A stretch of 64,000 bases of DNA from Candidatus Omnitrophota bacterium (GTDB lineage Bacteria > Omnitrophota > Gorgyraeia > 2-01-FULL-45-10). The notes below the pieces were generated by a model. It did no database searches. It had not been told where the DNA came from and saw only the letters and a list, made by a program, of their open reading frames with translations. Position 1 is the first letter of the stretch. Each line of letters opens with the position of its first letter. A program made the position numbers and the translations under genes. Shown in pieces: positions 3,705 to 48,312 of this stretch. The DNA is taken from contig JBAZKH010000002.1 in the NCBI GenBank assembly GCA_041650935.1, positions 64,372 to 128,371 on the forward strand, read 5' to 3'.

Positions 3705-3725
3705 CAAGTCCTGTCCCGCGCACCA
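3705..3725 (+). repeat. Exact 21-bp direct duplicate of the tRNA-Leu 3' end (CAAGTCCTGTCCCGCGCACCA, identical to 3566-3586)
   Basis: Read directly from the sequence. The two copies bracket a 118-bp GC-rich segment (3587-3704). Confidence 0.8.
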
Positions 3726-6144: not shown

Positions 6145-6151
6145 AACTCAC

Positions 6152-13219: not shown

Positions 13220-13279
13220 TTTATTTGGATGAATCGGAATCGAGAACGGTCCAGAAGGTGCCATTTCATAAATTAAACT

Positions 13280-29345: not shown

Positions 29346-29359
29346 GGAGGTAAAAATTT

Positions 29360-30034: not shown

Positions 30035-31728
30035 GTATCGGCATTGAATCAGAAAGACGTCTGCGTAAAACGATGGGCAAAAAATCCATCTTGGCCTTTG
30101 CCGATATTTATCTTTCTCATCATATAAAACTCAAAAGTCCAAGCCCTCCTTTTCACAAAGAAATATGCGATTTTCTCATAGACATGACTAACCATCGCGA
30201 TAAACGGCTGGCAATCGCGGCGCCACGCGGATACGCAAAAAGTACACTTGTAAATTTATTTTATGTATTGTGGTCTATTTGTTACGGAAAAGAACGATTT
30301 ATCTTAATTTTTTCAGCGACTGCCGATCAGGCGCAGTCGCAGTTAGCCACAGTGTCAAAAGAGCTTCAAACAAATATTCTCCTGCGAGATGATTTCGCGG
30401 ATGTATTTTCCACCAAAAGTCAGATTAAAGGAAAATTTACCCAAGATGAAATCATTACACCTAATGATATTAAAGTAAAAGCATATGGCGCAGGACAAGG
30501 TTCCCGGGGGATTAAGCATAATGAGCATAGGCCTACTTTAATTCTCCTCGATGATATCGATGGTGAAAAGAATACTTATAGCTCCAAAGCCAGAGAAAGT
30601 ATCTTCAGCTGGTTTAATCAAGTGGTCCTGTTTATGGGCGCGATTAACGTTGTTAATATGATCGCCATAGGAACACTTGTCCACCCCAAGTCACTATTGA
30701 CACGGCTGACCTATAAAGATGAATTCCTTAATTGGGATAAACTTATTTATAAGGCGATCGAAGAATTCTCCAAGCATGACGACTTGTGGCAAAAGTGGGA
30801 GAATATCGCGCGTAATCGCGGCGAGAGTTATGAAAGCGGAGTAGGCCTAGAAGCGGCAGATAGGTTCTTTCAGGATAATAAAGCCGATATGCTTAAAGAC
30901 ACAAAAGTCCTCTGGGAAGAGATGGAAGATTATTATACATTGATGAAAATCAAGACATTTGGAACTTCCTATAGCTTCGATTCCGAGAAACAAAATGATC
31001 CCACTAAAACTATGGATAGTCGTTACGACCCGGGAAAATTCTACTACTGGGATGACCAATTCCCCACGCTGGAAGAACTGCTCGCATCATTCGGCGGCGA
31101 CTATAGCTATGTAGGTGCCTGCGACCCGAGCGTTGGCGTAAAAAGTGGTCGCTCGGATCACTCGGGTATCATTATCCTTGCCCAGCATAAAGGCCGGCTT
31201 TATATCATCGATGCCGATATTATGGAACGTACTCAGGATGATCTGGTTCATACTATTGTTAATTACTGCAAAATCCGCCATCCAATGAACAACTTCATTA
31301 TCGAAGCTAATCTATTCCCACAGTTATTGCTTAATACTGTGCGTAATCACGCTTATAAGGAAAATGTTGTAGCCCCTTTTAAAGAAATCCGCAATACCGG
31401 GATTTCTAAAGAACAAAGAATCTTTGGAATGGAAACCTATCTTACAACAGGTACGGTTTTATTCTCCCGAAAGCATACAACATTGCTTGATCAACTTAAA
31501 TATTTTCCCAGAGACGATCATAACGATGGCCCGGACGCTTTAGAGATGGCCATAAGGGCAGCGGAAAGTCGAGTCAGTTTCTTGCCGATGGATGACGATG
31601 ATATAAGAGACAAACAGGGAAGACGTATTACTGATAGGGATTTTGGCCAAACAACTCCAGAAGAGGATGCGCGAGACGAGGACGACGAAGATGATGATCC
31701 AAATCGCAAGGGTGGCGTTAGCCCCTAA
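30031..31728 (+). CDS. Phage terminase large subunit (ATPase plus RNase-H-like nuclease) with an unusual acidic C-terminal tail
   Basis: 565 aa. Walker A AIAAPRGYAKST, Walker B LILLDDIDGE. C-terminal nuclease Asp residues (GACDPS, IIDADIME). Tail EEDARDEDDEDDDPNRKGG. Confidence 0.7.
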   Translation: MSIGIESERRLRKTMGKKSILAFADIYLSHHIKLKSPSPPFHKEICDFLIDMTNHRDKRLAIAAPRGYAKSTLVNLFYVLWSICYGKERFILIFSATADQAQSQLATVSKELQTNILLRDDFADVFSTKSQIKGKFTQDEIITPNDIKVKAYGAGQGSRGIKHNEHRPTLILLDDIDGEKNTYSSKARESIFSWFNQVVLFMGAINVVNMIAIGTLVHPKSLLTRLTYKDEFLNWDKLIYKAIEEFSKHDDLWQKWENIARNRGESYESGVGLEAADRFFQDNKADMLKDTKVLWEEMEDYYTLMKIKTFGTSYSFDSEKQNDPTKTMDSRYDPGKFYYWDDQFPTLEELLASFGGDYSYVGACDPSVGVKSGRSDHSGIIILAQHKGRLYIIDADIMERTQDDLVHTIVNYCKIRHPMNNFIIEANLFPQLLLNTVRNHAYKENVVAPFKEIRNTGISKEQRIFGMETYLTTGTVLFSRKHTTLLDQLKYFPRDDHNDGPDALEMAIRAAESRVSFLPMDDDDIRDKQGRRITDRDFGQTTPEEDARDEDDEDDDPNRKGGVSP

Positions 31729-32346: not shown

Positions 32347-33942
32347 CTAATTTTGCTGGGACTTAAGGAGGTTATTCCAGATCTCTTGCTGCCTATTCCA
32401 GTCTAATTCCTGCGTTATATCGCGCAGCTTGTATTCAGGGATGCTGGACAACGCTTTGTTGTCAGACAGGAGTATCTCTTCCTGGATTCGTGGCGACATG
32501 AGGAGCATAGTCGCGATGTGGCAGATCCTGGCTGGACTTATGCCGATCCAACCAGCGATTTCTTTTAAAGTGCATCTTTTTTCATGCACGATTTGGTCTA
32601 TCTGATGAGCCAGGATCAGGTTCTGCCGTATGAGCGGTTCTTTGCTTATCGCGGCCTGCTGGCGATGATAAGGTATATGCTTTAATTCAGCCAGCTTTAG
32701 CGCGAATTGGTGGCTTTTATCGCCATCATGGAGCACTATCTCAAGAGTTCCGTTAACCGCGTCGTAATGCGCAACCTTGGCGATTGATTTAAGGACTGGT
32801 ATTTTTGCTTCCAGGGTTAGCGATTCCCAGACCTTGGCCTCAATCCGCGGATCTTTGCAGACTGTCCTTAAAAATTCCATAAACTTATTCTCAATAGCTT
32901 GAGCTGAAATGAGACGCGTAGGACAGCTCTTATAGCCACGCTTCTGGGCGTTCATACAAAGGTAGTAATGGTACTTATTAGTGCCTTTCTTGCTATATAT
33001 GTAGTACATAGTGCTATCGCAGGCCTTGCAGCGCAGGATACTGTTTAATAAGCCAGTATTCGTCACTACGCCAGCGACCTTGCGCTCACGACGGTTATTG
33101 GCCAGTATTTCTTGAGCCTTTTGGAATATATCGTCGGGTAATATGCGCTCTTGCTCGCCTTGATAAAGCTGCCCGGCATGATGAACTTTACCGATATAGA
33201 ATGGATTTTTAACTATCGATTGAATGCTCGTACTTTTAAACTTTACACCGCCGGATTTCCGGCCTTCCAGGGTAGCGTAGCTTTTTGTCATGCGACTCTT
33301 CTCATTTAGCGCTACTGCTACTGAAAGGAGAGATCGCTTCTCAAGATAAAGATCGAATATCTCTTTTACGATCTCGGCCTCTTTTGGATTTATGACAAGC
33401 TTTCGGTTTATCTTGTCGATATCATAGCCTAAAGGCGGCCTGCCACCGACCCACTTACCTCTCTTTTTGGAAGCAGCCATCTTGTCGCGTGTTCGTTCGC
33501 TTATAATTTCACGTTCGAACTGTGCAAAAGAGAGGAGTATATTTAAGGTAAGGCGCCCCATCGAGGTATTGGTGTTGAAAGCCTGTGTCACAGATACAAA
33601 TGTTACGTTGTTCTGTTCAAAGAACTCTAAGAGTTGAGTAAAATCAAGAAGCGAGCGTGATAATCGATCTACTTTATAAACCACGACACAATTAATGCCA
33701 CCTTTTTTAATGTTAGTCATGAGTTTTTGCAGGGCAGGTCGTTCGGTATTCGCTCCTGTATAGCCAGGATCATCGTAGCACTCAGACAACGTTATCCAGC
33801 CTTCCGACTTTTGGCTTTGGATATAGCTCTCTGCCGATTCGCGCTGGTTATCTAACGACGTAAATTCCTGCGCTAACCCTTCAGTAGTCGAGACGCGTGT
33901 ATATATGGCGCAATTAATCTTTTTCTTTTCTTGTTTTTCCAT
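32347..33942 (-). CDS. Large serine recombinase, intact (531 aa)
   Basis: N-terminal INCAIYTRVSTTEGLAQEFTSLDNQRE. VVYKVDRLSRS. Recombinase domain. Cys cluster CKACDSTMYYIYS...YYLC. Paralogue of 4178-6144. Confidence 0.85.
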   Translation of the reverse strand: MEKQEKKKINCAIYTRVSTTEGLAQEFTSLDNQRESAESYIQSQKSEGWITLSECYDDPGYTGANTERPALQKLMTNIKKGGINCVVVYKVDRLSRSLLDFTQLLEFFEQNNVTFVSVTQAFNTNTSMGRLTLNILLSFAQFEREIISERTRDKMAASKKRGKWVGGRPPLGYDIDKINRKLVINPKEAEIVKEIFDLYLEKRSLLSVAVALNEKSRMTKSYATLEGRKSGGVKFKSTSIQSIVKNPFYIGKVHHAGQLYQGEQERILPDDIFQKAQEILANNRRERKVAGVVTNTGLLNSILRCKACDSTMYYIYSKKGTNKYHYYLCMNAQKRGYKSCPTRLISAQAIENKFMEFLRTVCKDPRIEAKVWESLTLEAKIPVLKSIAKVAHYDAVNGTLEIVLHDGDKSHQFALKLAELKHIPYHRQQAAISKEPLIRQNLILAHQIDQIVHEKRCTLKEIAGWIGISPARICHIATMLLMSPRIQEEILLSDNKALSSIPEYKLRDITQELDWNRQQEIWNNLLKSQQN

Positions 33943-33950
33943 CAGACCTC

Positions 33951-34394
33951 CTATAAATTAAAGAACAGATATCCGTTCCAATGCGCTCCGGTTATCTCCT
34001 TAGCGATTGCGGATAATGTCTTATAAATCTTTCCGTTATACTCGAAACCTTTCTCAAGTACCTTTACTCGGTACTTAGCGTCATTATATTCCTTAGTAAT
34101 CACAGTTCCCGGAATAGGAAGACGCTTATCCTTGGTACTGGCTGGCAGACATGAAGGCGGCCTATCCGGCCTGAGAGCTTTGTTATTGATAGGATCATAC
34201 TCCTCAATAAGCGCCGAAAGTCGCCCATTGGCCTTGTCTGATAGACTGCCTTGCTCGCGCTCCTGTAGCCTATAAGCGATCTTACGCCAGAGATAGAGCC
34301 TATGGTTACTGGTGGCATCCTCGCCATAAAGCTCCTTATATCTCTCGAGAAGCTCTTCAACAGGCGCACTTTTAAGTGTCATTATCTCGCTCAT
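33951..34394 (-). CDS. DUF2924-family protein (recombinase partner)
   Basis: 147 aa. KRLPIPGTVITKEY...GFEYNGKIYKTLSAIAKEITGAHWNGYLFFNL, paralogous to 6152-6661. Confidence 0.65.
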   Translation of the reverse strand: MSEIMTLKSAPVEELLERYKELYGEDATSNHRLYLWRKIAYRLQEREQGSLSDKANGRLSALIEEYDPINNKALRPDRPPSCLPASTKDKRLPIPGTVITKEYNDAKYRVKVLEKGFEYNGKIYKTLSAIAKEITGAHWNGYLFFNL

Positions 34395-34538: not shown

Positions 34539-34567
34539 TTGACAGAATTATTGCCATGTGATATATT
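34539..34567 (+). promoter_or_regulatory. Sigma70-type promoter for the Type I restriction-modification operon: TTGACA, 17-nt spacer, extended -10 TGaTATATT
   Basis: -35 TTGACA at 34539-34544. Spacer GAATTATTGCCATGTGA. -10 TATATT at 34562-34567 preceded by TG. Confidence 0.5.
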
Positions 34568-34573
34568 TTCTGC

Positions 34574-35185
34574 ATGGTTAAAGATGATATAGACATGACA
34601 GAAAGAACGAAGCCTTTAAAACTATTATCCAAAGAGATATTTTCAGGCGCTCCATTATATAGTACGGAGAAAATGGAAGAAGGCGCGGATGGTCTTCCCT
34701 TGATAAATATTAAGGATGTAGCCGAAGGAACTATTAGACCTGATACGTGTCGGCGGTTAATACCTGGGGATTTTAAGAACTTAGCTAGATATTTAGTATA
34801 TCCGAAAGATGTCGTTGTTACCTGCAGAGGTAGCCTATTGAAAGCCGCTGTTATTCCCGAGAACATCGGCAAGGCTCTAATAACATCAAACTTAATAGCC
34901 GTACGCCTAGACGAGTTAGTGTTACCAGAATTTTTGGCCATATATCTGAATATAAAGGAAGGCCAAAGAAAAATTCTTACGAGCGCAACTTCCGCTGATA
35001 CGCGCCTCGTGCTTACAGTTTCAAACATAGAAGAGTTTGAGATTCCTGTTTTGCCGATCAATTTACAGAAACAGATAATAGATTTAACAGCGTCTTCTGT
35101 TGAACAGTATAGATTGAGTTTGGATGCTGCAGTCACAAGGAAAAAAATTACCGAGCAGATTATAGAAGAACTAATAAAGAAATAG
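34574..35185 (+). CDS. hsdS: Type I restriction-modification specificity subunit, half-size (single target-recognition domain)
   Basis: 203 aa. One target-recognition domain followed by the conserved C-terminal helical region (LQKQIIDLTASSVEQYRLSLDAAV...). Lies directly upstream of hsdM. Confidence 0.55.
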   Translation: MVKDDIDMTERTKPLKLLSKEIFSGAPLYSTEKMEEGADGLPLINIKDVAEGTIRPDTCRRLIPGDFKNLARYLVYPKDVVVTCRGSLLKAAVIPENIGKALITSNLIAVRLDELVLPEFLAIYLNIKEGQRKILTSATSADTRLVLTVSNIEEFEIPVLPINLQKQIIDLTASSVEQYRLSLDAAVTRKKITEQIIEELIKK

Positions 35186-35196
35186 GGAGGATAAAA

Positions 35197-36717
35197 ATGT
35201 CAAAGCTAACAAATGGCGAACTCAATAATTATCTATGGGGTGCAGCAGATATTCTACGCGGCTCGATTGACTCATCCGATTATAAGAACTATATCTTCGG
35301 CTTTCTATTCCTTAAGCGTCTATCCGATGTTTTTGAGGATGAGGCGGAGAAAGTTATACAGAGGGAGCTTAAACGTGGCACATCTCAGGCTGAGGCCACA
35401 AAGATAGCCATGGAAGATCCAGACGAGCATCAATTCTTTGTACCGAAGCGCGCTCGCTGGTCCGAGATACGCAAGGTTTCACAGAATATAGGAGATGAGC
35501 TCAATAAGGCCTGTCATGCTCTCGAAGATAAGAATCAGATCCTCGAGGGCGTTCTTGCAGACATAGACTTTAATTCCAATAAGCTCGGCGATACAAAAAA
35601 CCGCGATTCGGTACTATCACGGCTTGTGAACCACTTCTCTAAAATCAGCCTTAAAAATACAGACCTCGAAGAGCCGGACATGTTGGGTAGGGCCTATGAA
35701 TACCTCATTGAGAAGTTCGCCGACGACGCCGGAAAAAAAGGCGGAGAGTTTTATACGCCGCGGAAAGTTGTCCAGCTGATCGTGGAGCTTCTAAAGCCCA
35801 AAGAAGGTATGCGTATTTGCGATCCCACCTGTGGTTCAGGCGGTATGCTTATCGAATGTGCCCATTATATAGAGAGGAAGAAGGGTAACCCAAGGAATAT
35901 TTCATTGTTCGGCCAGGAAAAGAATCTGGGTACCTGGGCCATATGCAAGATGAACATGCTCCTACATAACCTACCTGATGCAAGAATTGAGAAGGGCGAT
36001 ACAATACGGACTCCCAAACTTGTTAAGGAAGGCGAGTTAATGCTATTTGATAGAGTCATAGCAAACCCGCCATTCAGCTTAAAAGATTGGGGCATGGAAG
36101 CGGCTCAGAATGATGGTTTCGGAAGATTTCGTTATGGCATTCCTCCAAAGACCAAAGGAGATTATGCTTTCATGCAGCACATGATTGCTACAATTAACGA
36201 TAAAGGTATGGTTGGTGTGGTGATGCCTCACGGCGTGCTCTTTAGGGGCGCATCTGAAGGTAAGATCAGGAAAGTCCTGATAGAAGAAGACCGCTTTGAG
36301 ACGGTGATAGGATTAGCCCCGAATCTTTTCTACGGCACCCCCATTCCTGCAACAATTTTAATCTTTAATAGGAACAAACCAAAGGAGCGAAAAAACAAAA
36401 TTTTGTTTATTAATGCTTCAGGATGTTATGAGGGAGGCAAAAATCAGAATAAACTCAGAGCCGCAGATATCGAAAGAATCGTTAGTGCTTTTAATGGATA
36501 TGAGGATATAGAAAGATTTGCTAGGGTAGTTTCGCAGGATGAAATTAAGGAGAACGACTACAATCTTAATATTAGCCGCTACATTGATATGACGGAACCC
36601 GAACCCAGGATCGACGTCAGGGATGCGCTTAAGAAGTTACGCGATCTTGAGGCTCATCGCGATCAGGCTGAAAAAAAGATGGATGAATGCTTGAAGGGAT
36701 TAGGGTATGGGAAATAG
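35197..36717 (+). CDS. hsdM: Type I restriction-modification DNA methyltransferase subunit
   Basis: 506 aa. N-terminal HsdM_N region (LWGAADILRG...YIFGFLFLKRLSD). Motif I DPTCGSGGML, motif IV NPPF (VIANPPFSLKDW). Confidence 0.9.
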   Translation: MSKLTNGELNNYLWGAADILRGSIDSSDYKNYIFGFLFLKRLSDVFEDEAEKVIQRELKRGTSQAEATKIAMEDPDEHQFFVPKRARWSEIRKVSQNIGDELNKACHALEDKNQILEGVLADIDFNSNKLGDTKNRDSVLSRLVNHFSKISLKNTDLEEPDMLGRAYEYLIEKFADDAGKKGGEFYTPRKVVQLIVELLKPKEGMRICDPTCGSGGMLIECAHYIERKKGNPRNISLFGQEKNLGTWAICKMNMLLHNLPDARIEKGDTIRTPKLVKEGELMLFDRVIANPPFSLKDWGMEAAQNDGFGRFRYGIPPKTKGDYAFMQHMIATINDKGMVGVVMPHGVLFRGASEGKIRKVLIEEDRFETVIGLAPNLFYGTPIPATILIFNRNKPKERKNKILFINASGCYEGGKNQNKLRAADIERIVSAFNGYEDIERFARVVSQDEIKENDYNLNISRYIDMTEPEPRIDVRDALKKLRDLEAHRDQAEKKMDECLKGLGYGK

Positions 36718-37951
36718 TCACAAGCTACCTTCCGGATGGAAGCGTATTAAGCTCGGAGAGTATCTTACCGAAATTAGCGATCGCAATAACACAATCAAAG
36801 ATAACGGCGCGCCCGTTCTGAGTGTCACAAACAGACCCGGTTTTTCGATATCAGAGGAGCATTTTTACAAAAAAGTGTTTAGTAAGGATCTGTCTAATTA
36901 CAAAATTATTAAGAGAGGGCAGTTCGCCTATAACCCTTCAAGGGTCAATGTTGGCTCTATAGCACGCCTGAAGGAAGTCGATAAAGGGCTACTCAGTCCT
37001 ATGTATGTTACATTTGAGACCAAGATGGGTCTAAATGAATCATACCTGGATCATTGGATACTCAGTCCTCGCTTTAGAAGCCTTGTCAAGGCTGGCACGC
37101 AAGGTAGCGTAAGGAATTCATTAAATTTCTCTGCTCTTGCAGATTTCCCATTTTACCTTCCACCTGATGAAGAGCAAAAGAAGATAGTTGAAATCCTTGA
37201 TCGTATCGATCTTGTCATCGACCAAACCCAAGCAATTATTGATCAAACTCAAACTCTCAAGAAGGGTCTCATTCAGGAGTTATTCACGCGCGGGATTCCG
37301 AGTAAGAAAAAAAAGTTTATAAAAAGTGAACTTGGGGAAATTCCAGAAAAATGGCAAATTTTAAGGTTTGAAAATATCGTTGCTGACTATAGAAATGGAA
37401 TATATAAACATGAAAGACATTATGGAGCTGGAGTTCCTTGCATCAGAATGTATAACATATTTGATGGCAAGGTTAATACTCGAAATACACCATTAGTGAA
37501 AGCAAGCAAGAAAGAGTTGGTTGATTATGGTTTATTACCAGGGGATATATTAATTAATAGAGTAAATAGTTTAGACCAAGTAGGTAAGGCTGGTATTGTG
37601 AGAGAAGACTTAGGACCGGCTGTTTTTGAAAGCAAGAATATTAGGGTAAGAACAGACGGGTCAAAATGTCTTCCCGAGTATTTAATTACCTTTTTATCAT
37701 CTTCTCTATATTTAAGACAGATGAAACGTGGAATAAAAGCAGCTGTGCAACAGGCAACTATTAATCAAGACGATTTAAATCGAATAAAGATTAGCTTACC
37801 GCAAATAGAAGAGCAGCAGGTCATTATTAATCTTATGCAAAAGATTGATTTAGATATTCAAATTAACCAGACAACATATAATTTTTATCACGAAGTCAAA
37901 TCTGCAATTATGCAGGTCCTTTTGACTGGCGAGGTAAGAATTAAAAAATGA
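36707..37951 (+). CDS. hsdS: Type I restriction-modification specificity subunit, full-length (two target-recognition domains)
   Basis: 414 aa. Two target-recognition domains separated by a central conserved helix, and a C-terminal conserved helix. Overlaps the hsdM stop. Confidence 0.8.
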   Translation: MGNSHKLPSGWKRIKLGEYLTEISDRNNTIKDNGAPVLSVTNRPGFSISEEHFYKKVFSKDLSNYKIIKRGQFAYNPSRVNVGSIARLKEVDKGLLSPMYVTFETKMGLNESYLDHWILSPRFRSLVKAGTQGSVRNSLNFSALADFPFYLPPDEEQKKIVEILDRIDLVIDQTQAIIDQTQTLKKGLIQELFTRGIPSKKKKFIKSELGEIPEKWQILRFENIVADYRNGIYKHERHYGAGVPCIRMYNIFDGKVNTRNTPLVKASKKELVDYGLLPGDILINRVNSLDQVGKAGIVREDLGPAVFESKNIRVRTDGSKCLPEYLITFLSSSLYLRQMKRGIKAAVQQATINQDDLNRIKISLPQIEEQQVIINLMQKIDLDIQINQTTYNFYHEVKSAIMQVLLTGEVRIKK

Positions 37952-37961
37952 GAGGTGTGAA

Positions 37962-39032
37962 ATGAGCGACTATTCTAAATTATTCGAGGCAATATTAAAG
38001 GAGTCGAAAAACGCTAACGGAGCCTTTGGGCAGCTCCTTGACTCCTCAATAAACATACCGGAAGGGATCCGGTCTACGGCTAGTGATAGCCATAATCATT
38101 TGCGAGAATTTTTAGAAGGTGAGCATAAGCGAGATTCGACCTTTCCGCGGGTGTTATCCATAAAAGATGATGATTTCTTGGGAGGTTCTTTTGCAAGACA
38201 TACTAAGATATGGCCGCTGGATGATATAGATATATATTTCCCGTTGGATGGGTTTAATCTGTCTTATCTGCAAAACGGCTATAGGTTGCCATATACCGTT
38301 GTGTCAGATGGCGTGTTATCAAATAACCCATTGTTAGGTAGCCGCTGGACGATCGGAATTTATATATCGTCTTCTAAGTTAGTGACAGAATTTGCAGCAG
38401 TTCTTAAGCGGCACTATCCTGATACTAAAGTTAAACCCGATGGACAATCTGTTGCTATAAGGATGACCCAGGGTGAAACGTCCGATGAAGAAGGTTTGGG
38501 ATACGATATAGTTCCCTGCTTCTCATTGCAGCCGGATAACAAGACGGAAAGCTCTTTTTACCTTATACCCGATGGAAAAGATAACTGGACAAGGACTAAC
38601 CCTAGGATTGACACTGAGATAGCGGAAAAATTACACGTCGCTAACAATAAAACATATAGGAAAGTAGTTAAAATTGTGAAATATTGGAATAAAGAAAAGT
38701 TTCGTAGCATATTACCTTCCTATTATATTGAATTGGCTATAGCAAAGGGCTACATACAGAAAAATAAAGAGGGCGAGAATATAAACAGCCTTTCTTATGG
38801 TGTGGCAGTTGGATTCTGGGCTCTTAATGAGGCTATTAAACAGGGTGGTCAAGACTCATTTCTGCCATTGGCGCCCAAGGTTTACCCGGGACAATTAGAC
38901 GAAGGGCATAAGTTAATAATAGGTGCAGCCCACTCTGTTTCTCTTCAGGCTTGGGATGCTGAGAAAGCTGGCAATCAAGATCAAGCGATAAGTCACTGGA
39001 AGCGGATTTTTGGTGATACGTTTGGAGCGTAA
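37962..39032 (+). CDS. cGAS/DncV-like nucleotidyltransferase (CD-NTase-like). Candidate CBASS cyclase.
   Basis: 356 aa. GGSFARHTKIWPLDDIDIYF gives the GS-x11-[DE]h[DE]h motif. Third acidic residue at GYDIVPC. C-terminal VVKIVKYWNKEK resembles the OAS/cGAS KxW helix. RBS GAGAGGTG. Confidence 0.55.
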   Translation: MSDYSKLFEAILKESKNANGAFGQLLDSSINIPEGIRSTASDSHNHLREFLEGEHKRDSTFPRVLSIKDDDFLGGSFARHTKIWPLDDIDIYFPLDGFNLSYLQNGYRLPYTVVSDGVLSNNPLLGSRWTIGIYISSSKLVTEFAAVLKRHYPDTKVKPDGQSVAIRMTQGETSDEEGLGYDIVPCFSLQPDNKTESSFYLIPDGKDNWTRTNPRIDTEIAEKLHVANNKTYRKVVKIVKYWNKEKFRSILPSYYIELAIAKGYIQKNKEGENINSLSYGVAVGFWALNEAIKQGGQDSFLPLAPKVYPGQLDEGHKLIIGAAHSVSLQAWDAEKAGNQDQAISHWKRIFGDTFGA

Positions 39033-39042
39033 AGGATAAGCC

Positions 39043-39864
39043 ATGAAATTAACAGACCGATTAATCGAAGCTATGAGATCCGAGTTTGGTAAGAGCAAGA
39101 GATGGTATCATAGAAGTATTTGTGCAAGCTTAGGGATGTTGCTACTATCAGTAATCCTGGTTCCTTGTTCGTCCGGCATATCCGCAGTCATATTAGGGAT
39201 GGGCTTATTTATCTTACCGATGCTCTTATTTGTATCACGCGAATTTTCATTAGAACATCAGGATCGCGCTGAGTATATTAGGCGCTCTCTTATGTTGGCA
39301 GATGCTCTCGATCATAAGCCATCAAAAATTGAATTAGCTCAACTCAAAATCGACGTGGGAAGCATAGACAGAAGCGAGCCATTATTCGATAAACGTTATT
39401 ACGACTCTAAAATAGCTGTTGGGCCGAGTAGATTGATTGATATTTTAGCAGAATCAGCATTTTTTACGCATAACCTAAGTAAGCGTGTAGCCTATATTTT
39501 AGGGGGCATAATTTGTGTCGGCGTTGTTGGTCTATTTTTTGTCCTTTATATGCTTCTTAGTATACCTGTCGGGCATGAGATATCCTTGGTGGTTGCCAAA
39601 TGGGCTGCTCTAGTTATGTCATTCTTAGCAGCAGGAGATTTTTCATATTTATTTCGTAGATCTTTTTGTTTGTCCATAGCTTCCAAAAATGTGTTAAGTA
39701 AAAGCGATGTGTTCATAAAGAATGGAAATATTTCTGCAGAAGATGCAATGGAATTGGCAGATGAATATAACTGCGCTGTTATACAGTCGCCGCCAATTCC
39801 GGGTGCAATTTATAAGTACATGCTCAAATCATTGAATGAAGCATGGCGAAAGAGGCAATCATGA
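39043..39864 (+). CDS. Multi-pass membrane protein. Candidate CBASS membrane effector.
   Basis: 273 aa. Four hydrophobic segments (LGMLLLSVILVPC, VILGMGLFILPMLLFV, IICVGVVGLFFVLYMLL, AALVMSFLAAG). Immediately follows the nucleotidyltransferase. Its stop overlaps the hsdR start. Confidence 0.45.
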   Translation: MKLTDRLIEAMRSEFGKSKRWYHRSICASLGMLLLSVILVPCSSGISAVILGMGLFILPMLLFVSREFSLEHQDRAEYIRRSLMLADALDHKPSKIELAQLKIDVGSIDRSEPLFDKRYYDSKIAVGPSRLIDILAESAFFTHNLSKRVAYILGGIICVGVVGLFFVLYMLLSIPVGHEISLVVAKWAALVMSFLAAGDFSYLFRRSFCLSIASKNVLSKSDVFIKNGNISAEDAMELADEYNCAVIQSPPIPGAIYKYMLKSLNEAWRKRQS

Positions 39865-42842
39865 CCAGTAAAGGTTGGAACGAGTTACACTTATCAGAAG
39901 ACTCGACCGTTGAGCTCCTGCAGGCTCTAGGGTATACGTTTGTCCCCCCTGAGCAATTGGAGACAGAACGAGGTAGCCTTAAAGAGATAGTGTTGACCTA
40001 TCGCCTGGAGAAGAAGCTCAAAGAGATAAATCCTTGGCTTTCAGATGAGAATCTTAAAAAGGCGGTTCGTGCCATAACCACTGTTCCAGCAACGAGTCTT
40101 ATCGAGGCAAATGAAAAGATTTATACGTCTTTGGTTCATGGTGTTTCCATTGAGCAGGATATAGGCGATGGGCAAGGCAAGAAGGGTCACAGCGTATCCT
40201 TCATTGATTTTGATCACCCAGAGAAAAATGAGTGCGTAGTTACCCGCCAATTTAAAGTTGCTGGGCCAAAAGAAAATATTAAGTGCGATGTTGTCGTCTT
40301 TATTAACGGTATCCCTGTTGTTTTAATAGAGTGTAAAAATCCCACGATTCTTGATCCTATTAATAAAGCAATCGAGCAGCTTTTTAGATATCAGGAGCTA
40401 AAAGAAGAATATAAAGATAGGGGCGCACCTAAGCTATTCGAAACCATGCAGCTTCTTATAGCCACGTGTGGGCAGCAGGCAAAATATGCTACCGCTTATA
40501 CTCCATATCGTCATTATCTCGAATGGAAGGTTCCATATCCGATCAGCCTCGATGAATTAAATGAAAAATATACCAAAAGATTGTTTGGAAGGACGCCCAA
40601 TCCGCAAGATATTCTCATATATGGCCTGCTTGAAATCAGCAATCTGCTTGATATAATCAGAAATTTTATTTCTTTTGAGGTTGAGGGTGGGAAGACCATA
40701 AAGAAGATAGCTCGCTATCAGCAATTCATAGCTGTCAATAATGCCATCAGAAGAATTCAGAAGGAGAAAAGTTCGAAGAAGCGCGGAGGCGTTATCTGGC
40801 ATACTCAGGGCTCAGGCAAGTCTCTTTCTATGCTTTGGCTTGCTGTTAAGCTAAAGAGATGTAGAGAGCTTGAAAATCCCACCCTAGTTATTGTTACGGA
40901 TCGCGTAGATCTTGATAATCAGATTGTTGGAACATTCCAAAGATGTGGTTTCCCGAATCCGGCTCAGGCAAAGAGCGTAGCTAATCTGCGCGAGCTTATT
41001 AGGCAGGGGAATGGGCAAACAGTCATAACTACTATTCAGAAGTTTCAAGAAGCATCCGAAAATACAAGACATCCTGTGTTGTCAGAGGCAGAGAATGTAT
41101 TTGTGATGGTGGATGAAGCGCATAGAACACAGTATAAGAATTTAGCAGCCAATATGAGGCAGGCATTACCTAATGCGTGTTTCTTTGGCTTTACAGGCAC
41201 GCCAATAGATAAGAAAGATCGTAGCACTATACAGACCTTCGGGCCGTATATCCATACTTATACAATCGAGCAAGCCGTACAGGATGGGGCTACCGTCCCC
41301 ATTTATTATGAAAGCAGGCTTCCTGATGTTCATGTACAAGGTGAGAATCTTGATACCATTTTCGACAGATATTTTCAGGAATATAGCGAAAAAGAACGTG
41401 AAGAGATAAAGCGAAAATATGCCACAGAAGAGATAATTGGCCTTGCGTCCTCTAGGGTGGAAGCCATATGCCTAGATATTATTGATCATTATGAAAAATT
41501 CATCATGCCAAATGGCTTTAAGGCTCAGATTGTAACTCCGAGCAGAGAAGCTGCTATTATGTACAAGGAGATGCTTGATAAGCTCAGTGGTCCACCATCA
41601 GCAGTTTTGATATCAGGTAGTAACAATGACCCACAGCGGCTTAAGAAGCATCACAAGACTCAGGCTGAGGAGAAGGAGATAATTCGTAGTTTTAAGGAAG
41701 ATCCCGTTGAAAAATTAGCCATTATTATTGTCTGTGACAAGCTTTTAACTGGTTTCGATGCTCCTGTGGAACAAGTAATGTATATCGATAGCCCTTTAAA
41801 AGACCACACGCTCCTACAGGCGATAGCACGTGTAAATAGAACCGCAGACAAGAAAGACTACGGCCTTGTAATTGACTATTGGGGTATTTCAAAAGATCTA
41901 CAAGAGGCGCTTATTGTATTTCAACCTACTGATATAGTAGGAGCGTTAACTCCAAAAACGGATGAATTGCCAAGGCTTGAAGCACGTCATAGAATTGCTA
42001 TGCATTTCTTTGATAAAGTGACCAGAGATGATCTTGAGACATGTATAAAAATAGTAGAGCCAGAAGATGTAAGGGCAGAGTTTGATCTTGCATTCAGACG
42101 TTTTGCGCAGAGTATGGATATGGTTTTACCAGATCCTGCAGCATTACGGTATAGTTCTGATTTAAAATGGCTAGGCAAGATTAGAAATGCCGCGAGAGCT
42201 CGTTTTAGAGACTCTTCCCTAGACTTATCGAGTTGTGGTGCAAAGGTGAGGCAGCTTATCGAAGAACACATAAAAACCGATGGCGTACAGAGGCTACTTG
42301 AGCCAGTTTCCATTTTTTCAAAGAAGTTTGATGAATTTGTTGAAAACCTTACTACACCAGAAGCAAGGGCGAGCGAAATTGAACATGCTATGCGGCATGA
42401 AATCCACGTTCATCTTCAGGAAGACCCTGTATTTTTCGAATCTTTAAAAGCGCGTCTTGAGAAGATAATCGAAGAGAGGAAGCAGCAAAGGATAGATGCT
42501 GTTGAAGAGCTCAAACGCCTAAATTCATTAGTTGAGGAAATGCGTAATATTGGCAAGGTGGCCGAAGACCTAGGTTTCACAGAGACAGAATATGCATTCT
42601 ATAAGATGTTAAAGGCAAGTAGTGGCAAAAAAGATGACAATAGCTATGAAGCTTTGGCCCATTCAATCGTTAAAGCTTTAGAAAATCTGGCAGTTATAGA
42701 TTGGGTGCATAAAGATGACGTTCAGCGAGAAATGCGTAGGCAGATAAAAAGTATTCTTCGTTCAGGAGGTTATCAATTTGAAGAGATCGAAATCTTGATT
42801 GCCAAGATTATGGATTTAGCGAGGGTAAGACTGGCCAAATGA
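39843..42842 (+). CDS. hsdR: Type I restriction-modification endonuclease subunit
   Basis: 999 aa. PD-(D/E)xK motif VVFINGIPVVLIECK. Helicase Walker A HTQGSGKSL. DEAH (MVDEAHRTQ). Motif VI QAIARVNR. Confidence 0.9.
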   Translation: MAKEAIMTSKGWNELHLSEDSTVELLQALGYTFVPPEQLETERGSLKEIVLTYRLEKKLKEINPWLSDENLKKAVRAITTVPATSLIEANEKIYTSLVHGVSIEQDIGDGQGKKGHSVSFIDFDHPEKNECVVTRQFKVAGPKENIKCDVVVFINGIPVVLIECKNPTILDPINKAIEQLFRYQELKEEYKDRGAPKLFETMQLLIATCGQQAKYATAYTPYRHYLEWKVPYPISLDELNEKYTKRLFGRTPNPQDILIYGLLEISNLLDIIRNFISFEVEGGKTIKKIARYQQFIAVNNAIRRIQKEKSSKKRGGVIWHTQGSGKSLSMLWLAVKLKRCRELENPTLVIVTDRVDLDNQIVGTFQRCGFPNPAQAKSVANLRELIRQGNGQTVITTIQKFQEASENTRHPVLSEAENVFVMVDEAHRTQYKNLAANMRQALPNACFFGFTGTPIDKKDRSTIQTFGPYIHTYTIEQAVQDGATVPIYYESRLPDVHVQGENLDTIFDRYFQEYSEKEREEIKRKYATEEIIGLASSRVEAICLDIIDHYEKFIMPNGFKAQIVTPSREAAIMYKEMLDKLSGPPSAVLISGSNNDPQRLKKHHKTQAEEKEIIRSFKEDPVEKLAIIIVCDKLLTGFDAPVEQVMYIDSPLKDHTLLQAIARVNRTADKKDYGLVIDYWGISKDLQEALIVFQPTDIVGALTPKTDELPRLEARHRIAMHFFDKVTRDDLETCIKIVEPEDVRAEFDLAFRRFAQSMDMVLPDPAALRYSSDLKWLGKIRNAARARFRDSSLDLSSCGAKVRQLIEEHIKTDGVQRLLEPVSIFSKKFDEFVENLTTPEARASEIEHAMRHEIHVHLQEDPVFFESLKARLEKIIEERKQQRIDAVEELKRLNSLVEEMRNIGKVAEDLGFTETEYAFYKMLKASSGKKDDNSYEALAHSIVKALENLAVIDWVHKDDVQREMRRQIKSILRSGGYQFEEIEILIAKIMDLARVRLAK

Positions 42843-43579
42843 TAACGGAAAAAGGAACAATAGCATTCGGGAGCCATAATATAGACTTCTTCATACGACG
42901 AAGCAGCAGAAGAAGGACTATAAGTCTTTTTGTCGATCCCCACGAAGGAGTATTTCTGAGAGCGCCGCTGGGACCATCAGTTGATTCGCTAATAAAATTG
43001 GTGCATTCTAAAGCTGACTGGATCATAAAGAAGCAGAAGCAAATCGAAGAAGTGGGTGAGTTTCTTCCTAAGAGAGAGTTTGCTAATGGCGAAACATTTT
43101 TATATCTTGGGCGGCAGTTTCGTCTTAAAGTTTTAAGATTAGATAAAGCATCTTCAAGCAAAGTGAAATTTACGAATGGATGCTTTATAGTTTCTATCAA
43201 TGATGAATATACAGAAGTGGGCAAAAAGAGAGTCATGAGGAAGTTACTAACCAATTGGTACAAGAGGCATGCTCGCAACGCATTATTTAATAGGATTAAA
43301 ATTTACGCTAAGAAGCTAGATCTTGCACCAGTGGAGTTTGCTTTAGCAAACCAGAGCAAGCGGTGGGGCAGTTGTAGCCATAAAGGCAAGGTCAGATTCA
43401 ATTGGCATATTATTATGGCTCCTCTATCTCTAATTGATTACGTTGTCGTTCATGAGCTCTCACACCTAAAGCAACCAAACCACTCGCAAGAATTTTGGAA
43501 ATTATTAGGCAACGTAATGCCTGATTATGAAATAAGGCGCGATCGACTTCGCAAAGAAGGGCATAAGTTTTATTTTTAA
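42839..43579 (+). CDS. DUF45/YgjP-like (M48-family) zinc metallohydrolase, commonly co-transcribed with hsdR
   Basis: 246 aa. HExxH motif VVHELSHLKQPNHSQEF. Overlaps the hsdR stop. Confidence 0.65.
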   Translation: MITEKGTIAFGSHNIDFFIRRSSRRRTISLFVDPHEGVFLRAPLGPSVDSLIKLVHSKADWIIKKQKQIEEVGEFLPKREFANGETFLYLGRQFRLKVLRLDKASSSKVKFTNGCFIVSINDEYTEVGKKRVMRKLLTNWYKRHARNALFNRIKIYAKKLDLAPVEFALANQSKRWGSCSHKGKVRFNWHIIMAPLSLIDYVVVHELSHLKQPNHSQEFWKLLGNVMPDYEIRRDRLRKEGHKFYF

Positions 43580-43621: not shown

Positions 43622-44398
43622 ATGCAATTTCAATATTATGACCTAGGTAATCTAAATGGCGGAGAAATAGTTGAGGTTATTCTTTCAGGGAACTCCGCTA
43701 ATGTCAGATTGATGGACAGTTCAAATTATAGTAGCTTTAAAAATGGTAGACATCATACATATTATGGTGGACTTGCAAAAAGTTCCCCCGTTAGGATTCC
43801 TGTCCCAAGATCTGGGCACTGGTATGTGACTGTTGATTTAGGCGGATATCGTGGTACGGTAAGAACATCGGTTAATGTTTTGCCAGGCGCGCTTCCTGAG
43901 TTACGACAAGTCCCGCTATCGAGCGTTCCAACTCTTCGCTTGGATAGAGATTATACTAATGGTCAATTTGTAGAAAGAGAGGAACATAGGGAATACGATG
44001 TTTTTGTTTCTCATGCATCAGAAGATAAGGATGAAGTGGTGCGGCCTTTAGCTATAAAGTTACAATCAAAGGGTCTGAAAGTCTGGTATGATGAGTTTGA
44101 GTTAAAAATCGGAGATAGTCTTAGAAGAAAAATTGATAAAGGACTTGCAAACAGTCGATTCGGGATAGTTGTACTTTCAACCGCATTTATTGGCAAGGGC
44201 TGGGCAAATTATGAATTAGACGGAATTGTAACAAAAGCAGTTTCTGGCCAACAAGTGATTCTTCCAATTTGGCACAATATAACAAAACAGCAAGTCATTG
44301 ATTATAGCCCCTCCCTCGCAGATAAGCTTGCAAGGAATACAGCAATAAATACTATTGATGAGATAGCGGAGGAGATATATGGGGTTGTCAAAAGTTGA
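43622..44398 (+). CDS. TIR-domain protein with an N-terminal DUF1883-like domain
   Basis: 258 aa. C-terminal half YDVFVSHASEDKDEVVRPLAIKLQSKGLKVWYDEFELKIGDSL... is a classical bacterial TIR. The N-terminal 100 aa (QYYDLGNLNGGEIVEVILSGNSANVRLMDSSNYSSFKNG...) recalled as DUF1883-like. Confidence 0.65.
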   Translation: MQFQYYDLGNLNGGEIVEVILSGNSANVRLMDSSNYSSFKNGRHHTYYGGLAKSSPVRIPVPRSGHWYVTVDLGGYRGTVRTSVNVLPGALPELRQVPLSSVPTLRLDRDYTNGQFVEREEHREYDVFVSHASEDKDEVVRPLAIKLQSKGLKVWYDEFELKIGDSLRRKIDKGLANSRFGIVVLSTAFIGKGWANYELDGIVTKAVSGQQVILPIWHNITKQQVIDYSPSLADKLARNTAINTIDEIAEEIYGVVKS

Positions 44399-44457: not shown

Positions 44458-44691
44458 ATGTCTGACCGAAAACGCGTGTGGGTTTCGCCTGATGGCGAGG
44501 GTGGATGGAACGTGAAGACTCAAGGGAAAAGCAAGGCTGCAGGTAATTTTGAAGATAAAAGCAATGCAATTGATAAGGCTAAGGATATTGCGCAAAATGC
44601 ATCAAAAGGGCAGGTTATTATTCAAAAAAGAGATGGCACTATTCAAACTGAATATACTTACGGGAAAGATCCGTATCCACCGAAGGGGTAG
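44458..44691 (+). CDS. DUF2188-family small protein
   Basis: 77 aa. VWVSPDGEGGWNVKTQGKSKAAGNFEDKSNAIDKAKDIAQNASKGQVIIQKRDGTIQTEYTYGKDPYPPKG fits the DUF2188 pattern. Strong RBS AAGGAGG. Confidence 0.55.
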   Translation: MSDRKRVWVSPDGEGGWNVKTQGKSKAAGNFEDKSNAIDKAKDIAQNASKGQVIIQKRDGTIQTEYTYGKDPYPPKG

Positions 44692-44730
44692 AACTTATTT
44701 CTGATATATAAGCAGGGGCAAACGCAGGAT

Positions 44731-45558
44731 ATGAAAAAACTCCACAATTTTTTTCTATATCTATTTATTGCCTTACTTTTAGTCCCAGGTTGCAATGTTT
44801 CTACTAAGTCTCAACCTGCAACAGCCCAAAGCACAGGCCTCTTTGCGCATACGAAAAGAGCCGATAACAATGAGCACATTCTTTTCGGCTATCCCGGCCA
44901 CGAAAAAATCATTCTTTACCGCAAAGGCTATGTTTTAGGATATAACCCAGATAAGAAGAATGCAGACTGGGTAAGTTACCATTTTACCGAAGCCTATTGT
45001 GTCAAGAACGCAGGTAGGACAGGAGATTTTAGGCCAGACCCAGATTTGCCTCCCGGACAAAGGGCAGAATTAGTTGATTACAAGAATAGCGGTTATGATA
45101 AGGGTCACTTAGCTCCTGCCGCGGATATGGCAAGAGACACACAGACAATGTCCGAGAGCTTTCTTTTATCAAATATGACACCACAGGTGGGTATTGGCTT
45201 CAATAGAGGCATATGGAAGAACCTAGAAGAGAAGGTAAGGAGCTGGGTACACCAGAAGAAAAATATCTATGTCTTTACAGGGCCTATCTATGCGAACTCC
45301 ACTTACAAGACCATAGGGCCAAACAGGGTAGCCGTTCCTGCGCATTTCTATAAGATAATAGTTTCCTGCACAGAAACAGGGGAAAACCTTGATTCGATAG
45401 CGTTTATTCTTCCTAACCAAAAAGGGCCCGGTAATATGCTGCCACAATTTATTACTTCTATTAGAGAGATTGAAAAACGCACCGGATTAGACTTTATGCA
45501 TGATCTCGATGATGATATTGAAAATAAACTCGAAACCAAAACAGCAAAAATGTGGTAA
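44731..45558 (+). CDS. Secreted or lipoprotein DNA/RNA non-specific endonuclease (Serratia NucA family)
   Basis: 275 aa. Signal peptide with lipobox LVPGC. Active-site region GYDKGHLAPAAD (DRGH-type). Confidence 0.7.
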   Translation: MKKLHNFFLYLFIALLLVPGCNVSTKSQPATAQSTGLFAHTKRADNNEHILFGYPGHEKIILYRKGYVLGYNPDKKNADWVSYHFTEAYCVKNAGRTGDFRPDPDLPPGQRAELVDYKNSGYDKGHLAPAADMARDTQTMSESFLLSNMTPQVGIGFNRGIWKNLEEKVRSWVHQKKNIYVFTGPIYANSTYKTIGPNRVAVPAHFYKIIVSCTETGENLDSIAFILPNQKGPGNMLPQFITSIREIEKRTGLDFMHDLDDDIENKLETKTAKMW

Positions 45559-45576
45559 AGAAGAGGGGATAAAAAT

Positions 45577-46140
45577 ATGGGCAAAATAATTGATCCAAAG
45601 AAAATTAGAATAGGCGATGTTATACTTGTAGCGAGCGGCACAGCCGCTACTATTTGGGTACAACAAAAGTTGGGGTATGGAGATAGAAGCAAATGGACTC
45701 ATGTAGCGGGATGTATGGGGGGCTATGATTTAATTGAAGGGCAAGTTCCAAGATCAAGAGTCTGTGACCTGCAAAAGAACTATGTTGATAAAAAGATTGA
45801 AATAAAAGTAATGAGAAAGACTTATGATAACAATTATCCTAGAATAAAAATAGCTCTTTGGTGGGCTTCTATGAATAATACACTTTATGATTTTCCTCAA
45901 CTTTTGTGGTATCCTATAAAAGCAATTGGCCATATTTGGCCAGCATTAGGAAATTGCCTGTTGCATGTAAATAATATATTTAACAACAAAAAATTGCTTA
46001 TTTGTTCAGAATTATTAGCCAGTGGTTTTTATAAAGAAAATTATTATATATTTGGTAAGACAGCCGAAAATGTGCTGCCAGCAGATTTTGATGACTCCAC
46101 TATATTTAACGAAGTAACCGATATCTGGCTAGAAGTATAA
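45577..46140 (+). CDS. YiiX/YaeF-like permuted papain-fold amidase (Peptidase C92 family), soluble form
   Basis: 187 aa. IGDVILVASG...SKWTHVAGCMG and downstream CSELLASGFY. Same family signature as 13280-14011. Confidence 0.45.
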   Translation: MGKIIDPKKIRIGDVILVASGTAATIWVQQKLGYGDRSKWTHVAGCMGGYDLIEGQVPRSRVCDLQKNYVDKKIEIKVMRKTYDNNYPRIKIALWWASMNNTLYDFPQLLWYPIKAIGHIWPALGNCLLHVNNIFNNKKLLICSELLASGFYKENYYIFGKTAENVLPADFDDSTIFNEVTDIWLEV

Positions 46141-46370
46141 AAAGTAAAATATATTTAACTTAAATAATATCAATAATTTATAACTTGCATTTTCTTATAT
46201 TTGTGGTATATTTATAGCGAGAGTGTTAATAAAAAATACTCTTCTTTGTAGCAGATAGTACCGCTACCTAATTCATGTGGCGCCTAACAGCGGCATGAGT
46301 CCAAATTAACGGATTCGTGCCGCTTTTTTTGTTGCCAGCGGCACCTAATGGCTAAAATTGGAGGTGCCAC

Positions 46371-47648: not shown

Positions 47649-48312
47649 CGATCAGGCCAATAAAGAGCAGCCTATCCTTGTGCTGATCCAAGACATAAAG
47701 GAAGGCCGCGTAGCGCCTGAAGTTGTCGATAAGGACTTGCGCCAGCAGTGTGTCGAAGTGTTTTTGGGTGAGGGGTACACCGTTGCCTCAATAGCTCAGA
47801 TATTTAAGAAGTGCGATAAGACAATCCGGCGCGATATCGAGGATATAAGAGCACGCAACGCCATTACGCCGGATATAGACCTGGCCAAAAAGACCATAGG
47901 TGAGATGGTCGTATATATGCATACCCACCGGGCGTACCTAATGCGCCTTGCGCGCTCAAAAGATGCCTCGCTGGCCGAAAAGGCCCAGGCCGAATACTTG
48001 GCGGCTCGTATAGGCCTAGAACTGATCGCCAAGCTGCAAACCCTGGGGTTCCTGCCTTTAAAACCTCAGGAGATCGTTGCTGATATCTCGCATCATGTAG
48101 CTGCCGATAATGAGAGTTCGTTCGGAGAATTGAGATCTGAGATAGTAGAGATAGAGAGAATTTCGAAGGAATCCGGAGAGTTGACGCCGGAAATGGTAAA
48201 AGAGCTTGAGAATTTAAAAAAGAGAATTGAAAAAGCGGAAATACAGGATAGCGTAATCAAAATATCATCCCATGCGGATGAGGAAGGGAAAAAAGATGAA
48301 AAAGATAATTGA
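47635..48312 (+). CDS. HTH-containing TerS-like protein (paralogue of 29360-30034)
   Basis: 225 aa. VASIAQIFKKCDKTIRRDIEDIRARNA helix-turn-helix. Confidence 0.4.
   Translation: MSVNNDQANKEQPILVLIQDIKEGRVAPEVVDKDLRQQCVEVFLGEGYTVASIAQIFKKCDKTIRRDIEDIRARNAITPDIDLAKKTIGEMVVYMHTHRAYLMRLARSKDASLAEKAQAEYLAARIGLELIAKLQTLGFLPLKPQEIVADISHHVAADNESSFGELRSEIVEIERISKESGELTPEMVKELENLKKRIEKAEIQDSVIKISSHADEEGKKDEKDN

Follow-up and report, generated by a model that had tools for sequence, protein, structure and literature searches.

A predicted Type I CBASS gene pair between hsdS and hsdR of a Type I restriction-modification operon in an Omnitrophota genome

Why do two genes resembling a signaling nucleotidyltransferase and a membrane protein lie between hsdS and hsdR of a Type I restriction-modification operon? 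The question arises from a 64,000-nucleotide stretch of a Candidatus Omnitrophota metagenome-assembled genome (hereafter the window, meaning the whole stretch analyzed), in which the pair spans positions 37962–39864. The initial annotation proposed a minimal anti-phage signaling system based on cyclic oligonucleotides (CBASS) in this position. On the present analysis, the pair is quite likely an autonomous Type I CBASS cassette that occupies a known cargo site of the restriction operon and is expressed together with it, with restriction acting first and abortive infection second. The pair is carried on what is probably a mobile island adjoining a large serine recombinase.

The first gene of the pair (37962–39032) encodes a 356-residue protein whose 100% identical NCBI entry is named a hypothetical protein, and which has 570 homologues at E ≤ 1e-5. 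The proposed assignment to the SMODS/CD-NTase (cGAS/DncV-like nucleotidyltransferase) profiles was borne out: the protein scores 43.6 bits with Pfam SMODS against a cut-off of 26.5, and matches the PADLOC CBASS cyclase model PDLC00802 (9.6e-49, residues 17–354) along with 30 further cyclase models. The motif string GGSFARHTKIWPLDDIDIYF ... GYDIVPC, earlier read as a nucleotidyltransferase triad, is present. Its key residues, as well as those of the associated "KYW" helix, are invariant in 34 homologues with 47–86% identity: G74, G75, S76, D87, D88, D90, and D182 in the former, and K240, W242, and N243 in the latter. The catalytic set predicted from the alignment comprises G75-S76, D88, D90, and D182.

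Structural comparison supports the same assignment. The family profile aligns with the CdnD of P. aeruginosa (PaCdnD) at 2.9e-23 over positions 19–356. In this alignment, D88 and D90 fall on D62 and D64 of PaCdnD, and the N-I-N of the D62N/D64N mutant chain (6p8j) lies under the D88-I-D90 of the family. The AlphaFold model (pLDDT 88.4, pTM 0.85) contains the strands bearing D88-I-D90 and D182. Foldseek ranks 1–13 in the PDB are all CdnD, CdnC, or cGAS proteins (E 4e-13 to 4e-8), led by PaCdnD (3.6e-13) and followed by CdnC, the E. cloacae and S. enterica CdnD enzymes, and cGAS. Model, Foldseek, and profile agree on a two-lobe cGAS/DncV-like fold that includes the C-terminal helical lobe, in keeping with the Pol-beta fold originally expected. 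The gene is thus predicted, from sequence and model, to encode a CD-NTase with an intact catalytic GS/DxD/D set. No match to an aminoglycoside nucleotidyltransferase or MNT antitoxin family was obtained in Pfam, NCBIfam, or PADLOC.

The cyclase had been described as unusually small, a description that the lengths contradict: it has 356 residues, against 300 for PaCdnD, about 320 for CdnC, and about 290 for CdnB. It exceeds PaCdnD by 56 residues and has extra N-terminal helices and an insert. This insert of about 30 residues (~108–141) follows the DxD strand and is missing from PaCdnD; D116, W129, and S136 are invariant within it, and P110, Y111, N122, P123, and R128 nearly so. The conserved insert is a candidate regulatory or sensor surface. 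No relatives of the window cyclase were found on viral contigs, and an exact-sequence query with it returned nothing from the contig index.

The second gene (39043–39864) encodes a 273-residue protein with four predicted transmembrane (TM) helices, as first noted. Hydropathy indicates two hairpins (~27–64 and ~150–200), and the AlphaFold model (pLDDT 86.4) agrees, with four long helices at 3–42, 46–89, 128–172, and 180–227. The protein matches the PADLOC CBASS Effector "4TM" model PDLC00724 (1.1e-20, residues 4–272), which favors the proposed membrane effector of a Type I CBASS over a transporter; the same model matches the effector orthologues of L013, L007, and P0131. Two other assignments were considered and set aside. 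No transporter family was matched in Pfam, NCBIfam, or PADLOC. The suggested SLATT profiles gave only sub-threshold or weak signals (SLATT_1 in one homologue, 26 against 41 bits, and weak RTasSLATT matches), and the SLATT assignment was not adopted.

Conservation in the effector is concentrated outside the membrane helices, in the soluble linker (65–148) and the C-terminal region (201–273). Invariant or near-invariant residues include E77, R80, R81, D87, Y119, Y120, S122, G127, R130, and E137, and toward the C-terminus Y242, N243, C244, N265, and W268. The positive-inside rule predicts that the N-terminus, linker, and C-terminus are all cytoplasmic. Because the conserved residues cluster in these cytoplasmic parts, we infer that they form a signal-binding region.

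An exhaustive profile search gathered 1501 cluster representatives of the effector (E ≤ 1e-3), of which 308 reach E ≤ 1e-30; nearly all are full-length, single-domain proteins of ~270–290 residues. Pfam S_4TM is matched by 6 of 25 effector homologues (~30–35% identical; best 7.5e-8) and by none of 10 sampled representatives of the effector family. The effector therefore appears to belong to an S-4TM-like sub-family (PADLOC PDLC00724) that stands apart from S-4TM itself and is linked to it through homologues. No relative of the window effector was found on plasmids.

The effector directly adjoins the cyclase on the same strand. Among the genes between 34574 and 46140, Pfam and PADLOC recognize no Cap2/Cap3 (E1/E2/JAB), HORMA, or TRIP13, confirming the lack of ubiquitin-like or TRIP13/HORMA accessory genes that had been remarked upon. 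A cyclase with an adjacent effector and no accessory genes is the arrangement of a Type I CBASS, and the pair is classified as such on its predicted content: a CD-NTase plus a 4TM effector. Rough dN/dS values, estimated with dS near saturation, are ~0.05–0.09 for the cyclase (0.055–0.093) and ~0.12 for the effector, and both genes appear to be under purifying selection. With 570 homologues and dN/dS of 0.05–0.13, the pair is far beyond what chance would produce.

The genes around the pair are packed tightly in a single forward-strand run from 34574 to 43579. The four open reading frames of the initial annotation (hsdS, the cyclase, the membrane protein, and hsdR) are all found on this strand at the coordinates below.

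34539–34567, forward strand: best sigma-70-like promoter match, TTGACA-17-TATATT with TG (11 of 12 positions; consensus match only)
34574–35185, forward strand: half-size hsdS-like gene located before hsdM; 203 residues, with one target-recognition domain (Specificity_I in PADLOC, 8e-23; Pfam Methylase_S slightly under its cut-off)
35197–36717, forward strand: hsdM, Type I methyltransferase subunit (HsdM_N and N6_Mtase 1e-107; TIGR00497 275.8 bits, cut-off 242.75)
36707–37951, forward strand: hsdS, complete specificity subunit that carries two target-recognition domains (Methylase_S in two stretches; PADLOC Specificity_I 1.6e-80)
37962–39032, forward strand: predicted CD-NTase (CBASS oligonucleotide cyclase), 356 residues (Pfam SMODS, PADLOC PDLC00802, AlphaFold/Foldseek)
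39043–39864, forward strand: predicted four-transmembrane-helix CBASS effector, 273 residues (PADLOC Effector "4TM" PDLC00724, hydropathy, AlphaFold)
39861–42842, forward strand (reading frame listed from 39843): hsdR, Type I restriction and translocase subunit (HSDR_N, SWI2_SNF2 1e-88, T1R_D3-like, T1RH-like_C; TIGR00348 574 bits)
42839–43579, forward strand: YgjP-like metallopeptidase (Pfam YgjP-like 4.8e-58)
46289–46324, forward strand: first strong terminator-like hairpin downstream, 14-bp stem then T7 (pattern match only)

The hsdM, hsdS, and hsdR genes are all complete according to Pfam, PADLOC, and NCBIfam, and the operon is predicted from its genes to be whole. In particular, both genes flanking the pair are intact: hsdS carries Methylase_S, and hsdR carries HSDR_N, SWI2/SNF2, T1R_D3, and the C-terminal domain. 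The nearest solved relative of the window HsdR is the EcoR124I HsdR (3.5e-37). The half-size hsdS is kept in three related loci (L005, L006, and L089; 68–92% identity) and could provide the system with a second, palindromic specificity. A YgjP-like gene lies 3′ of hsdR in every related locus that is long enough (L005, L010, L011, and L013).

Spacing between these genes is short throughout. The half-size hsdS and hsdM are separated by 11 nt, hsdM and hsdS overlap by 11 nt, and hsdR and the YgjP-like gene overlap by 4 nt. The claim that the pair joins its neighbors by tight overlaps survives for the effector/hsdR junction; the hsdS/cyclase and cyclase/effector junctions are instead gaps of 10 nt each. 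With hsdR as listed from 39843, its overlap with the effector is 22 nt. HsdR N-termini were compared with those of L011 ("MNTQDW"), L005 ("MTNQSW"), and L010, and the start at ATG 39861 is conserved in L011 and L005. Because the N-termini of the related loci fit this ATG, it is probably the true start, and it would reduce the overlap with the effector stop codon to 4 nt, as ATGA. A start/stop overlap of effector and hsdR is present in the window, L005, L010, and L011.

The promoter match precedes the first operon gene, with 6 nt between them; the total of promoter-like sites in the region, all of them consensus matches only, is not above that of shuffled sequence. A pattern scan revealed no terminator-like site inside the packed operon genes, and the transcription unit, or the island, may end at the downstream hairpin. 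Given the 10-nt gaps, the start/stop overlap with hsdR, and the lack of an internal terminator-like site, the CBASS pair is most likely transcribed together with hsdM, hsdS, and hsdR. By GC content and by GC at third codon positions (GC3), the pair does not stand out as foreign among the operon genes, and no inverted or direct repeats flanking the pair were found.

Whether this placement is peculiar to the window was addressed through its relatives. Exact-sequence look-ups, GTDB genomes, and JGI metagenomes yielded 168 loci, which were searched with the window proteins and with the proteins of locus L013; the family counted here comprises the 96 unique loci whose cyclase is at least 38% identical. 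A 4TM effector lies 3′ of the cyclase in 51 of the 66 loci with enough downstream sequence. The pair occupies the hsdS–hsdR junction in 8 of the 96 unique loci, and hsdR is found downstream in 5 of the 47 loci with at least 2.5 kb of downstream sequence. The suggested survey of hsdS–hsdR cargo in relatives thus returned the same placement in eight related loci. About 90% of the cyclase-family loci lie outside restriction operons. Since this is the setting of most of the family, the pair appears to be an autonomous cassette and not an obligate restriction accessory.

The embedded copies are carried on two restriction backbones. Loci with the window-type backbone have cyclases 86% (L006), 82% (L089), 78% (L005), 77% (L010), and 60% (L011) identical to that of the window, and the HsdR of L011 is 70% identical to the window HsdR. 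The second backbone (L013, L090, and L092) has cyclases with 56–58% identity, together with HsdR and HsdM proteins only 28% and 35% identical to those of the window; the L013 HsdM carries an N-terminal helix-turn-helix (HTH) domain. In L092, the effector and hsdR look fragmented, through decay or poor assembly. L013 also encodes a 554-residue Schlafen/AlbA_2 plus HATPase_c_4 protein (11993–13657) between the effector and hsdR, and its junction therefore holds two cargoes, the Schlafen gene and the CBASS pair.

In a neighbor-joining tree, the embedded copies fall into two adjacent sub-clades, and the remaining family is solo. One solo pair (L007, 69%) is nested in the sub-clade of the window and adjoins ParB-like genes and a gene for a Sigma70_r4/RNA_pol_A_CTD-domain protein. 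Cyclase and 4TM pairs without restriction genes are found in L007–9 at 69% and in most relatives from Acidobacteria and Planctomycetota. Effectors also appear to have been exchanged within the cyclase clade of the window. In L001 (8001–10403), the gene after a cyclase of 58% identity encodes a 169-residue 2TM (SLATT-like) CBASS effector (PADLOC 1.3e-61); this locus has a second, different cyclase (PDLC00769, 1.2e-85) and no 4TM protein.

Identities along the operon are uneven. HsdS is 29–73% identical to its counterparts in related loci while HsdM is 86–97% identical, a pattern that resembles the usual swapping of recognition domains. The nearest counterparts of hsdM and the half-size hsdS are in L089 (97% and 92%), those of hsdS and the cyclase in L006 (73% and 86%). 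This mosaic implies recombination within the operon, with a likely breakpoint near the hsdM/hsdS junction.

More distant relatives occur on 953 plasmid records, mostly from Escherichia, Salmonella, and Klebsiella, where full-length cyclases are 27–29% identical to that of the window. In both plasmids examined (2 of 2), the next gene is annotated as an "S-4TM family putative pore-forming effector". The plasmid cyclases match PDLC00802 (2.9e-141), the best model of the window cyclase; this holds for the cyclase of Mixta, whose effector falls in other "4TM" sub-models.

By analogy with established CBASS, infection would activate the CD-NTase to produce a cyclic oligonucleotide, which would bind the cytoplasmic parts of the effector. 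The effector would then disrupt the inner membrane, and the cell would be killed or arrested before phage release. The restriction enzyme would act first, on unmodified DNA, and phages that escape it would then face CBASS as a second, independent layer. The position of the pair would reflect a cargo-collecting hsdS–hsdR junction and shared expression, not a required physical partnership. The initial proposal of a two-layer cassette is plausible, and it is strengthened by the recurrence of the placement in eight other loci and on two divergent backbones.

Several observations weigh against this account. The cyclase scores 97.9 bits with NCBIfam CBASS_cyclase_b and 60.7 bits with CBASS_cyclase_a, under their cut-offs of 200; because of these low equivalog scores, it is assigned to an apparently divergent CD-NTase clade. 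The window effector has no match to Pfam S_4TM (PF18159) at E ≤ 0.01, hhalign detected no similarity between its family and the enterobacterial (Mixta) S-4TM protein annotated by PGAP, and no solved structural relative was found, so that its putative nucleotide-binding site is drawn from conservation only. Co-transcription is likewise read from gene spacing alone, as the promoter and terminator scans give consensus matches and the signals of this phylum are uncharacterized. In addition, the repeated occupation of one junction on both backbones may signify something beyond a hotspot.

This last point hints at an arrangement in which the pair would guard restriction as PrrC does, with the CD-NTase or effector held inactive by HsdM2S(R2) and released when Ocr-, ArdA-, or Stp-like proteins disable restriction. 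In such a scheme, which we consider unlikely, CBASS would monitor restriction instead of acting on its own, and the CD-NTase could sense the state of the restriction complex, or its inhibition by anti-restriction proteins, perhaps through the insert. The pair shares its place between hsdS and hsdR with prrC, and the nearest solved HsdR relative, EcoR124I, is one that we take to be a Type IC enzyme, as is EcoprrI. A Type IC restriction-modification locus harbors prrC (PMC12707154). Every relative with at least 77% identity is embedded, both of the divergent backbones show the placement, the start/stop overlap with hsdR is found in the window, L005, L010, and L011, and the ~30-residue insert with its invariant D116, W129, and S136 could be a sensor surface. 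However, ~90% of the family loci have no restriction genes nearby, whereas PrrC is near-exclusively embedded (10.1101/2024.01.29.577857). A 69%-identical solo pair is nested among the embedded clade, and in L013 the Schlafen/AlbA_2 gene separates the effector from hsdR.

Two further readings concern the pair itself. It is very unlikely that the genes form a non-cyclic nucleotidyltransferase and membrane conflict module, in which the enzyme would make linear 2′-5′ or 3′-5′ oligoadenylate or nucleotidylate a protein or nucleic acid, or the two proteins would act as a toxin–antitoxin-like pair. The sub-cut-off NCBIfam equivalog scores would be compatible with this, as would the ~20% identity to any characterized CD-NTase, the presence of MiD51/MAB21-type non-cyclase proteins among the Foldseek matches, and the lack of a recognized SAVED, STING, or Cap15 beta-barrel nucleotide sensor in the effector. 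Yet the full catalytic set is kept as in CdnD, and so is the C-terminal helical lobe; PDLC00802, the best PADLOC model, is shared with the enterobacterial nucleotidyltransferase and S-4TM pairs, the class of the validated EcCdnD12-4TM. An inert passenger, that is, a decaying and functionless insertion that interrupts the operon, is scarcely credible. The apparent fragmentation of the effector and hsdR in L092 could be taken as such decay (or as poor assembly), but in the window both reading frames are full length with every invariant residue intact, dN/dS is 0.05–0.13, and the downstream hsdR is complete. The autonomous, co-expressed Type I CBASS cassette remains the preferred reading.

The window contains two diverged copies of a two-part module. 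One part, a large serine recombinase with DUF2924, occurs at 4570–6661 and 32347–34394 (reverse strand; DNA ~71% identical). The other, made up of a ParB_N-N6_N4 methylase, a 224-residue reading frame, and a terminase large subunit (PHROG 38, 6e-90 and 4e-104), occurs at 28086–31728 and 46371–49873 (forward strand; DNA ~74% identical). The restriction/CBASS island is flanked by the second recombinase on one side and by the second methylase/terminase set on the other, and no phage structural genes were recognized after the second terminase. The two module copies may represent satellite-like or prophage-like elements in a tandem or nested arrangement. The order of recombinase, DUF2924, half-size hsdS, and hsdM recurs in L006 and L089. 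A 42-nt direct repeat (93% identical) is present at 2648–2689 and 3721–3762, 1073 nt apart, in the interval that separates the first phage-like genes from the first recombinase.

Additional cargo is found on both sides. Immediately after the YgjP-like gene, a DUF1883 and TIR-domain protein (43622–44398) matches the PADLOC candidate PDC-S66 (1.5e-73) and ThsB-like models (1e-42), and is probably a further defense gene of the island. The next segment, 44458–46140, encodes a DUF2188 protein (77 residues), a predicted non-specific DNA/RNA endonuclease (Endonuclease_NS 1.4e-55) whose N-terminus is hydrophobic, resembles a signal sequence, and ends in "PGC", and a 187-residue reading frame without a family match that has the lowest GC3 of the island (0.28); these may include a secreted nuclease and an immunity or partner protein. 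In L005 (9941–13906), the restriction/CBASS/YgjP/DUF2188 block known from the window is followed downstream by a ubiquitin-like conjugation set of Prok-E2_E, ThiF, TCAD9, and BubE, which occupies the place of the TIR and nuclease genes of the window. Cargo on the right-hand side of the island thus appears to vary. By the first serine recombinase, the segment 6818–17133 carries defense-like cargo: an N6_N4 methylase, a ResIII/SWI2-SNF2 helicase (738 residues), an SMC-like AAA ATPase (795 residues), a C92 peptidase, an HTH and SocA/Panacea antitoxin-like protein, and a SLOG/lysine-decarboxylase-like protein.

If the preferred reading holds, CBASS would join PrrC, DarTG2, and GmrSD-like systems as hsdS–hsdR cargo. 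One cassette is present on both restriction backbones, divergent as they are, and as a free-standing pair, which supports the idea that the junction is an exchange site, at which first-line restriction and last-resort abortive infection would be expressed together. The analysis also delineates a divergent CD-NTase clade from phyla that have been poorly studied and a large group of four-helix CBASS effectors, an uncharacterized sub-family with ~1,500 cluster representatives. To our knowledge, the activation triggers of Type I CBASS are largely unknown; regulation by the restriction complex, if true, would offer a defined and tractable one. Specialists would expect a locus of this kind, and the most useful details are its recurrence on two backbones and the size of the effector sub-family.

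As a general pattern, defense genes have been documented inside BREX, DISARM, Hma, and Type I restriction loci, with PrrC almost exclusively embedded (10.1101/2024.01.29.577857). In enteropathogenic Escherichia coli (EPEC), DarTG2 lies between hsdS and hsdR, a site regarded as a potential recombination hotspot (PMC12255303), and TgvAB is embedded in the Type I operon of the V. cholerae island VPI-2 (PMC11411939). The literature searches turned up no paper that explicitly describes CBASS between hsdS and hsdR. The supplement text of Payne et al., which does not extend to the survey's list of embedded systems, has no entries for "CBASS", "SMODS", or "cyclase".

The closest functional counterparts of the pair are Type I CBASS with 4TM effectors, represented by EcCdnD12-4TM and the enterobacterial plasmid pairs. 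EcCdnD12-4TM is a validated Type I CBASS that confers at least 10,000-fold protection and needs its catalytic aspartates (10.1101/2023.05.21.541620). As in the window, these systems consist of a cyclase followed by a four-TM protein of ~270–310 residues, lack Cap2/Cap3 and HORMA/TRIP13, and have cyclases that share PDLC00802. They differ in that the plasmid cyclases are only 27–29% identical, the window effector matches PDLC00724 and not 00715–00723 or 00725, the hosts of the window-type pair are Omnitrophota and Planctomycetota, and the window pair lies inside a restriction operon. PaCdnD (PDB 6P82, 6P8J, and 6P8U), from a Type III CBASS, is the best match in both sequence and fold (TM-score ~0.7 on the target), and its GS, DxD, and KYWN helix align with those of the window cyclase. 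Identity is nevertheless ~20%; the window cyclase is extended in its N-terminal helical region, carries the ~30-residue insert, and is without HORMA/TRIP13 partners.

In position, the pair resembles PrrC of EcoprrI, an anticodon nuclease whose gene is a suicide-type defense gene between hsdS and hsdR. PrrC, however, is a single ABC-ATPase/nuclease protein that is masked physically by the restriction complex and near-exclusively embedded, whereas the window pair is unrelated to it in sequence and mostly found outside restriction operons. DarTG2 (EPEC) and TgvAB (VPI-2) are, like the window pair, two-gene defense cassettes in a Type I restriction operon, but their cargo differs: DarTG2 is an ADP-ribosylating toxin–antitoxin pair, and TgvAB is a GmrSD-like Type IV restriction system. 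At the start of the window operon, no RptR-like repressor gene was recognized, and a half-size hsdS is found instead. The parts of this locus, and the presence of defense cargo at the hsdS–hsdR junction, are already known, and the window is a further example of both.

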